Source: Escherichia coli O157:H7 (GTDB taxonomy: Bacteria > Pseudomonadota > Gammaproteobacteria > Enterobacterales > Enterobacteriaceae). From it: a stretch of 64,000 bases of DNA. The DNA is taken from NCBI RefSeq assembly GCF_013167455.1, contig NZ_CP038328.1, one strand, 5' to 3'. The translations under genes were made by a program, and so were the position numbers. A model generated the notes under the pieces. It made no database searches, was not told the origin of the DNA, and worked only from the letters and a program-made list of their open reading frames with translations. Below are positions 51,152 through 58,744 of the stretch, in pieces. Within the stretch, counting starts at the first letter, position 1. Each line of letters starts with the position of its first letter.

Positions 51152-51285
51152 CTGTGAAATGCCGGATGCGGCGTGAACGCCTTGTCCGGCCTACAAAACC
51201 GAAACGTATGTAGGCCTGATAAGACGCGTCAGCGTCGCATCAGGCAGTTGTTGTCGGATAAGGCATGAAAGCCTTATCCGTCCTG
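51152..51285. repeat. REP/BIME cluster between malE and malF
   Basis: Several gccggatg…ccggcctaca / gtaggcctgataagacgcg…cgcatcaggc units. Confidence 0.85.
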
Positions 51286-55642: not shown

Positions 55643-56053
55643 TTACTCCCGCTTCAGCCGTTTCGAATTACACAGCCACAGGGTGACCACCAGTAACAGG
55701 ATCGCAGCCGAGTAGATCAACACATCCAGTGGCGATTTATGATCGACGATGATCAAGCGCACAATGGCGGTGATCCCAATATAGACAAAGTAACGTAGCG
55801 GGAAGTGAAAACCGGACTGAAAGTACTTCACAATCAGCGCGATAAATTCGAAATAGAGAAAGTAAACCACCAGTCCTTCTACCAGCTCATATTTGCTGGC
55901 TTGTTCTGGCGCGAACAGCACATCAGCCAGATGCACCGTTTCTTTGCCGAGGAAGACAACCAAAATAAGGCCGAGGCACAGCAGGCCAAGATTGAGTACG
56001 GTCTGCAAAATGGTGGAGATAAACTCCACGCGCGGACGAGAGAGTGACGTCAT
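55643..56053 (-). CDS. psiE: phosphate-starvation-inducible protein
   Basis: 136 aa, [40 protein letters not shown]…. Confidence 0.95.
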
Positions 56054-56159
56054 AGCAGTACCTCCTTCACAGTGGCGAGCTTCCTGTATAACGCAAAAAT
56101 GTGACGGAGATCTATATTTTTTGTGTATGTTTTGTTCAACCTGGATTTGGAGCGCGCCT

Positions 56160-56235
56160 CCACCAAAGCCGGATATACCTACCCGTAGGCCGGATAAGCC
56201 GCGCCTGGCGGCGCATCCGGCAAGACAAACCGCAC
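56160..56235. repeat. REP-like element
   Basis: gtaggccggataagccgcgcctggcggcgcatccggc. Confidence 0.7.
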
Positions 56236-56352
56236 CAAAGCCGGTAATTCAAAAATCACCCATTCAGGTGATTCCCAGCCACCAGCAATGCGCGAAAAAT
56301 CGACAATGTTCCTCTGGAACAAATGAAACGTAACCTGATAAAGGTGGTAAAA

Positions 56353-56601
56353 ATGAAGCCTTATTTTGCTGCTTTGATGTTATCAGTCTCTGCTCTTCCT
56401 GCTTATGCTGGTCCGCTCGGTACTGCTGATAAAGCCGACCTACCGCAAAGCAATGTCTCCAGCCCAATGATGGCCCAGTCGCTCAGGCAACCAGACCTGC
56501 AACCGATATCGACGGACAGGAAGACAGAATGTTTTCGCCTTTACACACCAGATCGCAAACCGGGGGTGAACTGCGTTCCTGATGGCTCAACAGGCCATTA
56601 A
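56353..56601 (+). CDS. small secreted protein (YjbT-like?)
   Basis: ATG 56353 after AGGTGG; signal peptide MKPYFAALMLSVSALPAYA, 82 aa; opposite strand to its neighbours. Confidence 0.5.
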   Translation: MKPYFAALMLSVSALPAYAGPLGTADKADLPQSNVSSPMMAQSLRQPDLQPISTDRKTECFRLYTPDRKPGVNCVPDGSTGH

Positions 56602-56647
56602 GAATAAAGGTGCCAGTGATTGCGAAAACTGGCACCTTTCCCATGAC

Positions 56648-58744
56648 TTAGCGGAAATTGACGCTACGGTCGCTGGTCATGTCATACAACTGGAACTTAC
56701 GCCCAAGTTGCTGACCACCGTCACGCGTCAGCGGCGTCCAGCCAATCGCCGCACGGCTGCGTGTCGGGCCAGACGAGAAGAGATCCAACGGTACAGAGAC
56801 ATACACGCCTTTGGTGAAGTCCCCTTCGCCGTACTCCTCTTTCGAAACGTTGGTGATCGTGGCATAGCCGCCCACCACCACGCCGCTGTCAAAGCGTTTA
56901 GCGATCTCCAGCGTGCCGCCTTTATCCCCTGCCAGATACTGCCCGACGCTGGCTTTAACTAACACATCCTGAGCGAAAGATGGCGTCCAGTAGGCGGTCA
57001 GATGTCCGGTTTTCACGCTGTAGTCGGTGAATTTCATCATATCCTTTGCACTACGCCAGTCGCGCTGTTTAACGTAGTTGGCATCCAGACCAAACGCCCA
57101 GTTGCTGTCCAGCGGGCGATACAACACTTCTGCCCCCGCACCGCCAAACATGGTTTCGAGATAACCTCCGTAGACCTGACCGTAGAAGCCGTTGCCCAGA
57201 TGCTGGAAGTAGTTGGCTTGCAGGTTATTCACATAGACATCGTTCTGCACATACTCGCGCACATGGGTACGCACGCGCGGTAAGTGCGAGTCCTGCGGCG
57301 GATTGGTGTAGTTAAACTTGTCGTAGTTGTTGGCAAGATTTGCAAACAGGCTGCCGGTGGTCAGCAGATGGTCCGTCAGCCACAAATCTGCCGTTCCCAT
57401 CACGCCCAGCTGATACATGTAAAAGTTTTCCGGGCCACCGACCGACTGGTTCAGCACCGGATCGATATGGAAATCAAAGCGCGATTTGTCGATATACCAG
57501 CCCTGCTCGGTGGACTTCGGAACCACTGGCTCGACGCGTTTTTGCGCCAGCTTCGTTTCGTGGCCCAACGGCTCTCCGGCGAGATGATTTTTCAGGCTGG
57601 CGACATCCGTTTCCGTCGTCACCTGCGGCATGTTAAGGCGATTTTCCGTAACGCGGATCGTCTTGATCCCATCCGGCAGATCATTCATCACGATCCGATT
57701 AGCACGAACGATCCCTTCGCGCGAATCACGATATTTCACCTGCTCGCCGGTAACATACAGCGTATCGCCTTTCGCCTGGATCTGCGGATCGGCAAGTCCG
57801 GCATTGTATTTCAACAGCGTTAACTGATTCGCCACCACCGAATGCTGCAAAATGGCATCCTGCGGCTGCGGTTGATATTGCGGGCGGGCGTTATCGTTGT
57901 AAGACGGGCGCAGATCGTTAAAGTTGGTGCGCAGCGTGACGCCAAACATAAAGGTGTTGGCACGTTCATAGCTAAGGTTAACGTCGGCCCAATCGGTAAC
58001 GCGATAAATCGCCCCGACGTTAAACTTACTTTTTTGCTCCAGCTTACCGGCAAAATCCTGCTGATAATTATTGCCTTCATACTCCAGTTTCAGGCGCAGC
58101 GGTTGCCAGGGCGTCTGGTATTCCACGCCGCCAAACAGTGAGGCAGGACCGTGGAACATCTGGCTACCGTCGATAGATCCCGCCTGTTTGTAGCTGTTAT
58201 CGCGATAGCAATATTTATCACTGGCTGAACAGAGCGGATTTTTCACATTACCGCTTGTGCCCAAATATCCCCAGCCCAGGCCAAGCGTAAAATCGAACGG
58301 CCCCCAGGCTTTGCTGGCAACAAGATATTCCGCATCAAACAGCCCCGTACCGCCGATATCCCGCGCACCAACCGCCACTTGCGGCAGCCAGTAACTCTCT
58401 TCCCACAAACGCAGTTTGAGATCGAAGGCTTTATCTTTATACGTTTGATCGCCAGAGAACGCTTCGACGCTGCTGTACTGCCGGGTGCGCACGTCGGTGT
58501 AGCGCAGCGTTGTTTCCAGCCACGGGAAGAGTTGCACTGAAGCTGAGTAATAACGGTACTGATCGTTATCGCGATAGTTCAGACTCAACTCCCCTTCCCG
58601 CGCCATGCGAGCCGTGGGCGTTTGTAATAATCCTACGCCACCGAAATCCGACTGCGACGGACCAATGGGCGCAGGATATGTTTCGCCGTAGCAAGCTGTG
58701 CTAATGCCCAGCGCCAGTAAGCTAAGCAGATGTCTTTTTTTCAT
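56648..58744 (-). CDS. yjbH: outer-membrane polysaccharide export protein
   Basis: 698 aa, [36 protein letters not shown]…. Confidence 0.9.

Follow-up and report, generated by a model that had tools for sequence, protein, structure and literature searches.

What gene, if any, lies on the plus strand between psiE and yjbH in Escherichia coli O157:H7, and is its product likely to be made, exported, and put to use? A sequence-only reading of the window (the whole 64,000-nucleotide stretch of DNA analyzed here) had described an 82-amino-acid (aa) open reading frame (ORF) with a ribosome binding site at positions 56353 to 56601 and had named K-12 yjbT as its possible counterpart, with low certainty. 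Both statements proved correct. The ORF (plus strand; 82 codons and a TAA stop at 56599 to 56601) has the sequence that was quoted, with a product that starts MKPYFAALMLSVSALPAYA and an AAGGTGG motif 5 nt ahead of the ATG. It is nested in frame within a longer ORF of 92 aa, which the ORF listing and the raw sequence both place from ATG 56323 to the same stop. Database comparison identifies the protein as Pfam family PF17089, whose description is "Uncharacterised protein family YjbT" (215.2 bits, E = 8.8e-65, residues 1 to 92 of the 92-position model, where the curated gathering cutoff is 27 bits). The K-12 record carries yjbT (b4620, "PF17089 family protein YjbT") at the syntenic site between yjbH and psiE. 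The order xylE-psiE-yjbT-yjbH is identical in the two genomes, the nucleotide alignment of yjbT with K-12 is nearly identical, and the 82-aa product differs from K-12 YjbT by one residue, A14V, in the signal peptide. Apart from the length of the database protein, which is 92 aa as opposed to the 82 aa favored by our comparison, there is no difference of substance. The window DNA at this locus is 100% identical to O157:H7 genomes. The ORF is therefore yjbT, an already annotated E. coli gene that RefSeq labels either "hypothetical protein" or "periplasmic protein." As such, this re-identification matters little. What we add is modest: a probable correction of the start codon, a constrained Cys loop at the C terminus, and a conserved promoter/leader cassette. 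YjbT is among the core E. coli proteins still without an assigned function, and its gene was presumably annotated too late for inclusion in the standard knockout collection. We hold it probable that yjbT is a genuine monocistronic core gene with a start codon at 56353 and a Sec-exported, 63-residue product of which the C-terminal loop is the working part.

The gene had also been called antisense to its neighborhood. The flanking genes psiE (55643 to 56053) and yjbH (56648 to 58744) are indeed both on the minus strand, but the next gene out on the left, xylE, is on the plus strand like yjbT, and because the yjbT ORF has zero overlap with neighboring genes, the term is valid only loosely, in the sense of opposite orientation. 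The length of the ORF alone is no evidence of a gene, because the window contains 112 ORFs of at least 82 aa that begin with ATG and shuffled copies of it contain on average ~32. The ORF stands out from chance by virtue of its Pfam match, its near-universal presence in E. coli, and an excess of synonymous differences between genera, the last of which is described below. The yjbT locus is found in 5,415 of 5,426 complete E. coli genomes, with identity never below 95%, and one of the 5,415 to 5,418 matching places sits on a record labeled as a plasmid rather than a chromosome. In a scan of one genome per species (100,044 species), relatives were detected in four other Escherichia species and in Kluyvera georgiana, and two protein searches covering billions of sequences add only Pseudocitrobacter, Buttiauxella, Shimwellia, and a few unnamed metagenome lineages. 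The orthologues with names are thus from Escherichia albertii, Escherichia whittamii, K. georgiana, Pseudocitrobacter, Buttiauxella, and Shimwellia. The YjbT family is a small one, restricted to some of the Enterobacteriaceae; conservation in close relatives, on which the sequence-only reading had staked its case, extends across Escherichia species and four other genera. RNA sequencing (RNA-seq) of K-12 has detected transcription of b4620 in 7 of 7 conditions (PMC3734233). Databases also hold "YjbT" variants of 60 to 97 aa (P0012, P0013, P0006, and P0014), several of which are frameshifted versions. At one such locus (L007) the neighboring xylE and yjbH are fragmented too, which suggests assembly indel errors rather than biology; P0014, from Shigella flexneri, is possibly a real pseudogene.

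Which of the two in-frame ATGs serves as the start codon? The comparisons indicate that translation most likely starts at ATG 56353 and not at the annotated ATG 56323, so that the start codon in the databases is probably 30 nt too far upstream. We favor the 82-aa start because the corresponding Met, preceded by the same Shine-Dalgarno sequence, is where every orthologue outside Escherichia starts and because Kluyvera has no in-frame ATG farther upstream. Those orthologues are 75 to 85 aa long, and all of them start with M-[KTR]-x-Y-[FW], aligned to the second Met. Kluyvera, Pseudocitrobacter, Buttiauxella, and the metagenome lineages share an almost unchanged GATAAGGTGGTAAAA-ATG block, even where the gene copy sits in an unrelated context, and the Shine-Dalgarno block (AAGGTGG, 56341 to 56347, plus strand, read from the sequence) is kept in 8 of 8 lineages examined, Shimwellia included. 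Kluyvera also has a 1-nt deletion relative to E. coli inside the supposed extension, and ATG 56323 is found only in Escherichia. The ten extra codons of the 92-aa annotation (MKRNLIKVVK, 56323 to 56352, plus strand) are probably 5' untranslated region (UTR) containing the Shine-Dalgarno sequence.

If the databases were right, translation from ATG 56323 would yield a precursor of 92 aa whose n-region is long and highly basic (MKRNLIKVVKMKPYF...), and the mature product would not change. We judge this unlikely, although some initiation at ATG 56323 may occur in E. coli. The ATG and the frame are intact in 6 of 6 Escherichia sequences, of the two substitutions within the ten codons, one (CGT to CGC, E. 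albertii) leaves the amino acid unchanged, 4 of 7 RNA-seq-assembled 5' ends fall 7 to 22 nt upstream of ATG 56323, and this start is the choice of both PGAP and the K-12 curators. On the other hand, ATG 56323 has no good Shine-Dalgarno sequence ahead of it and stands 1 nt after an inverted repeat that could form a stem-loop (P2, see below), while the second ATG is the one behind the strongly conserved Shine-Dalgarno block. The extension is missing in all non-Escherichia orthologues, with the Kluyvera indel breaking the frame, and the 82-aa form is already the annotated product in some O157 records. In the K-12 LB sample, one RNA-seq-assembled 5' end corresponds to window position 56347, which is downstream of ATG 56323. 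The mature protein is identical with either start codon. In some O157 GenBank records the 82-aa form (P0049; E. coli TW14301 and related strains) bears the name "tat-linked protein quality control"; it contains no twin-arginine motif, and the label looks like an annotation error.

The claim of a clear signal peptide is supported by simple sequence rules, which are what our signal-peptide call consists of, for the E. coli product and for its orthologues. A Sec-type signal peptide of 19 residues is predicted at 56353 to 56409 (plus strand), with cleavage after A-Y-A. The YjbT N terminus has a net charge of +1 and a 10-residue Kyte-Doolittle maximum of 2.13, with A-Y-A before G20 supplying the −3/−1 positions, so that it shows the features of a signal peptidase I substrate, namely, a positive n-region, a hydrophobic h-region, and small −3/−1 residues. 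The charge and hydrophobicity pattern is present in every orthologue, and small −3/−1 residues are readable in all aligned sequences. The lipobox [LVI][ASTVI][GAS]C is absent in E. coli and six other orthologues; Shimwellia has a lipobox-like IAAC at residues 9 to 12, which is probably spurious, being too near the N terminus. Signal peptidase I would thus cut the 82-aa precursor after Ala-Tyr-Ala, leaving a periplasmic polypeptide of 63 residues and 6.8 kDa. YjbT shares with generic Sec/signal peptidase I preproteins a basic N terminus, a hydrophobic core of ~12 residues, and small −3/−1 residues, but its predicted mature form, known here from sequence features, is unusually short and apparently unstructured. 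The description "small secreted protein" agrees with these features, with export itself standing as a prediction.

Judging from its composition and comparisons, the product is likely a mostly disordered periplasmic polypeptide of 63 residues, with a pI of 6.75, of which 54% are Pro, Ser, Thr, Gln, Gly, or Asp. Its first part is a fast-evolving, Pro/Ser/Gln-rich middle segment of 38 codons (56410 to 56523, plus strand), which has a pN/pS of 0.56 to 0.85 between genera, a pLDDT of ~50, and indels in the family alignment and is probably a disordered spacer. The remainder is a conserved C-terminal module, TECFRLYTPDRKPGVNCVPDGSTGH (56524 to 56598, plus strand), with Cys codons at 56530 to 56532 and 56572 to 56574. 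The family alignment gives for this module the pattern T-x-C-[FY]-x9-P-G-[VIL]-N-C-[VI]-P-D, and columns T58, C60, P70, G71, N73, C74, P76, and D77 are invariant in 13 of 13 family sequences. YjbT therefore displays the family signature of an N-terminal hydrophobic signal and a C-terminal C-x13-C with P-G-x-N-C-x-P-D. Over the final 25 codons, the comparison of E. coli with Kluyvera gives 14 synonymous differences for 18.3 sites and 1 nonsynonymous difference for 56.7 sites, and that of E. coli with the L003 lineage gives 18 synonymous differences for 18.7 sites and 0 nonsynonymous differences for 56.3 sites. Synonymous sites in these 25 codons are saturated, compared with zero or one nonsynonymous change, a pattern indicative of very strong purifying selection on the last 25 residues. 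Because of this substitution pattern between genera, we conclude from the aligned sequences that yjbT is truly protein coding.

The two module Cys residues, 13 residues apart, are the sole Cys residues of the mature E. coli protein and probably form a disulfide loop, which would close in the oxidizing periplasm. We propose that this loop is the working part of YjbT and would serve as a small epitope for binding a partner in the envelope or outside the cell; the 25-residue module is a concrete target for mutagenesis. An AlphaFold model based on the 13-sequence family alignment has a mean pLDDT of 54.8 and a pTM of 0.14, and its sole secondary structure is the signal-peptide helix (residues 3 to 10). 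This fits a largely disordered chain, although the low model confidence may reflect the shallow alignment of 13 sequences and not true disorder. A profile search of PDB sequences with the YjbT family gave no match at E values up to 10, and neither NCBIfam named families nor the PADLOC antiphage defense HMMs matched at E values up to 1. Separately, a metagenome scan with a degenerate DNA pattern for PGVNC[VI]PD without Escherichia codons returned 71 stretches, all of them chance matches and none of them YjbT-like.

The literature search found no study of yjbT; the mentions are limited to a table of SELEX results, where it appears as a neighbor, and a machine-learning table, where it is one of the features. 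In the latter, YjbT is a feature predicting strains that inhibit E. coli (PMC12746109). We read this association as a taxonomic marker effect and not as a function.

Could the neighborhood of yjbT reveal its role? In Escherichia, Kluyvera, Pseudocitrobacter, and one metagenome lineage (L013/L014), the gene order is psiE-yjbT-yjbH. Between the convergent yjbT and yjbH of the window lies a 12-bp stem-loop (56606 to 56639) with a folding energy of −19.6 kcal/mol (z = −4.9) on the plus strand and −19.4 kcal/mol (z = −4.8) on the minus strand. It is a probable bidirectional terminator, and the yjbT transcript would end at this hairpin, which it would have in common with yjbH. A simple terminator scan did not call the stem-loop, because the U-run on the plus strand is short. 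Every orthologue has its own hairpin directly 3' of the stop codon. In Buttiauxella, Shimwellia, and L003, yjbT adjoins csbD/epimerase, DUF2767, NUDIX hydrolase, or glycoside hydrolase/phosphotransferase system (PTS) operon genes. Linkage of yjbT to yjbEFGH is thus not conserved, and the neighborhood is no reliable clue to function.

These arrangements weigh on the proposal that YjbT assists the adjacent YjbEFGH exopolysaccharide system as an accessory factor in the periplasm, a proposal that we regard as improbable. It would explain why yjbT adjoins yjbH in convergent orientation, with a common hairpin, in Escherichia, Kluyvera, Pseudocitrobacter, and L013/L014. However, the gene and its promoter cassette occur in unrelated neighborhoods in the other three groups, yjbT lies on the strand opposite to the operon with its own promoter, and even in Kluyvera an acetyltransferase gene intervenes between yjbT and yjbH. 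In addition, exhaustive profile searches place the family in five enterobacterial genera only, and yjbEFGH is much more widespread than the yjbT family, occurring, for example, in Salmonella. The intervening gene of K. georgiana (L012, 5377 to 5832) encodes a 151-aa hexapeptide-repeat acetyltransferase and is absent in E. coli. Kluyvera is also without xylE between malG and psiE.

Upstream of yjbT, an inverted-repeat search identified both P1 (AATCACC-N6-GGTGATT, 56254 to 56273), a conserved upstream element, and P2 (TGTTCC-TCT-GGAACA, 56307 to 56321, plus strand). Both are kept in 7 of the 8 lineages examined, the exception being Shimwellia, which has a partial P1 (ATCAC only) and no P2. In the lineages that have both repeats (Shimwellia excluded), the P1-P2 distance is 50 to 52 nt and the distance from P2 to the start codon is 30 to 32 nt, and this spacing holds in the unrelated neighborhoods of Buttiauxella and the L003 lineage too. 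Among Escherichia sequences, conservation begins abruptly at ~56247, with P1 marking its 5' edge: the stretch from P1 to P2 (76 columns) is 87% invariant and free of gaps, whereas the REP-containing DNA just upstream of P1 is 43% invariant and has gaps in 49 of 141 columns. yjbT and its promoter/leader cassette, which includes both inverted repeats, move together between genomic contexts.

The conservation boundary and the RNA-seq ends together suggest a weak promoter, with P1 centered near −42 and P2 at the 5' end of the mRNA. The 5' ends of K-12 transcripts fall at window positions 56301 to 56316 in four samples (PMC3734233), where the ends are imprecise RNA-seq assemblies and the positions were converted by a coordinate offset from the K-12 record. 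This paper was the sole source of approximate yjbT 5' ends among the supplements of transcription start site mapping and ribosome profiling studies. The predicted sigma-70 promoter (56272 to 56300, plus strand) has a −35 element TTCCCA at 56272 to 56277, a 17-nt spacer, and a −10 element AAAAAT at 56295 to 56300. It agrees with the consensus at 8 of 12 positions, short of the scan threshold, and a consensus promoter scan found nothing above threshold at yjbT; Pseudocitrobacter has GATAAT at the position aligned with the −10 element. Transcription would start ~45 to 50 nt upstream of ATG 56353 and place the P2 stem-loop at the mRNA 5' end. The P2 loop varies from 3 to 5 nt, the outer pair of P2 is G-C rather than U-A in L014, and a G·U pair occurs in L098. 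We infer that P2 behaves more as an RNA hairpin than as a fixed-spacing operator, and it is probably a stem-loop at or near the mRNA 5' end, while P1 is possibly an activator site or UP-like element. The resemblance is to stabilizing stem-loops of the ompA 5' UTR type, since there is likewise a short conserved hairpin where the yjbT RNA-seq 5' ends fall; the comparison differs in that the yjbT start position is one we infer, and P2 could instead be a protein-binding palindrome.

Other assignments for these elements were tried and rejected. By eye, a sigma-E promoter fails since GGAAC and TCTGA are 5 bp too close together, and a sigma-54 promoter fails for want of TTGC at the −12 position. A CRP/FNR site at P1 would have the opposite half-site order, and comparison of P1 with known E. 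coli regulator consensus sequences gave no convincing match. Rfam returned for the yjbT leader only noise and a weak REP-related naRNA4 match (E = 0.003, below the gathering score).

A longer leader of ~110 nt would allow a different use of P1, in which AUCACC (56255 to 56260) pairs with the Shine-Dalgarno GGUGGU and blocks translation and the P1 hairpin is the permissive alternative. When the 125 nt upstream of the start codon were folded, the minimum-energy folds of several orthologue leaders did pair AUCACC with GGUGGU. The adjacent helix varies in sequence yet stays complementary, being UCAGGU:ACCUGA in E. coli, UCAGGCGA:UCGUCUGA in L003, and CAAAGCA:UGCUUUG in Buttiauxella izardii, with four G·U pairs in Pseudocitrobacter, and cognate duplexes are more stable than noncognate ones (permutation P of ~0.02 to 0.03). 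These comparisons involve only eight lineages, which are phylogenetically related, and the element has no Rfam match. The L098/L099 lineage has three uncompensated disruptions of the pairing, the RNA-seq-assembled 5' ends are downstream of P1, and the REP-derived, indel-rich DNA upstream of ~56247 leaves no room for a conserved promoter before P1. Since the RNA-seq ends, the conservation boundary, and the uncompensated changes in L098/L099 all argue that P1 is outside the mRNA, we downgraded this switch to a slim chance, and we prefer the short leader with P2 at its 5' end.

The architecture of the protein itself invites the analogy that YjbT is a pre-propeptide, which would be exported and have its middle segment removed, freeing the 25-residue disulfide-looped peptide as a diffusible signal or effector. 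Its three-part layout of signal peptide, fast-evolving spacer, and strongly conserved Cys-containing C terminus, and a precursor length similar to that of heat-stable enterotoxin precursors, would accord with this. In architecture, which is all that is compared here, the STa and STb precursors are both short and likewise have a signal peptide followed by a spacer and then a C-terminal peptide that contains Cys, and in all of these proteins the C-terminal peptide would need periplasmic disulfide formation. Nevertheless, YjbT has no detectable sequence similarity to STa or STb and could form one disulfide rather than two or three; it is encoded by a chromosomal core gene as opposed to a plasmid or transposon gene, and processing or secretion of YjbT is conjectural. 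Nor is there similarity to known peptide families in the PDB profile, NCBIfam, and PADLOC searches, a conserved processing site before the module (the preceding residues are RK, RR, HV, HR, RV, LN, and YN), or any linked processing or export gene. We consider release of a free peptide very doubtful. The broader proposal that YjbT is a self-contained, horizontally mobile "peptide cassette," with its own promoter/leader, a Sec signal, a disposable spacer, and a strongly conserved, disulfide-looped 25-residue ligand that is periplasmic or secreted, seems to us equally speculative. If true, it would represent an undescribed kind of enterobacterial signaling or inhibitory peptide whose expression may be controlled via the conserved P1 and P2 elements. 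We favor instead the simpler reading of a periplasmic polypeptide with a C-terminal loop. Finally, the suggestion that the ORF is untranslated and owes its conservation to a different kind of element, for instance an RNA or regulatory region, has virtually no chance of being right, because apart from the general fact that ORFs this long are common by chance it has nothing in its favor, and it is effectively already refuted by the substitution pattern, in which synonymous differences between genera far exceed nonsynonymous differences in the C-terminal module, as well as opposed by the retention of frame, Shine-Dalgarno sequence, and signal-peptide features despite ~50% protein divergence.

The psiE-yjbT spacer contains several further features. 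REP-type palindromes lie between psiE and yjbT at 56168 to 56221, where the subthreshold naRNA4 match is found; a full naRNA4/REP match is present elsewhere in the window at 51213 to 51283 (minus strand; 68.4 bits, above the gathering score). On the minus strand, RefSeq annotates a 47-aa "hypothetical protein" (WP_000487766.1) at 56179 to 56322 in O157 genomes, which is not annotated in K-12. Its ORF overlaps a REP-type inverted repeat (56189 to 56221) and the yjbT promoter region, and Escherichia species differ in this region by indels that are not multiples of three; by its sequence, it is probably a spurious gene call. A supplement lists a 61-nt RNA on the forward strand of K-12 in the yjbT-psiE spacer (old coordinates 4238095 to 4238155; PMC3734233). 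This RNA converts to window positions 56246 to 56306 on the minus strand, approximately from P2 to P1, where P1 appears as a hairpin followed by UUUUUGAAUU, and is possibly a short divergent RNA that terminates at P1. At the psiE-proximal end of the spacer, positions 56095 to 56126 are conserved from Escherichia to Kluyvera and contain TGTGACGGAGATCTA and A/T-rich inverted repeats, which are presumably the psiE promoter and regulator sites.
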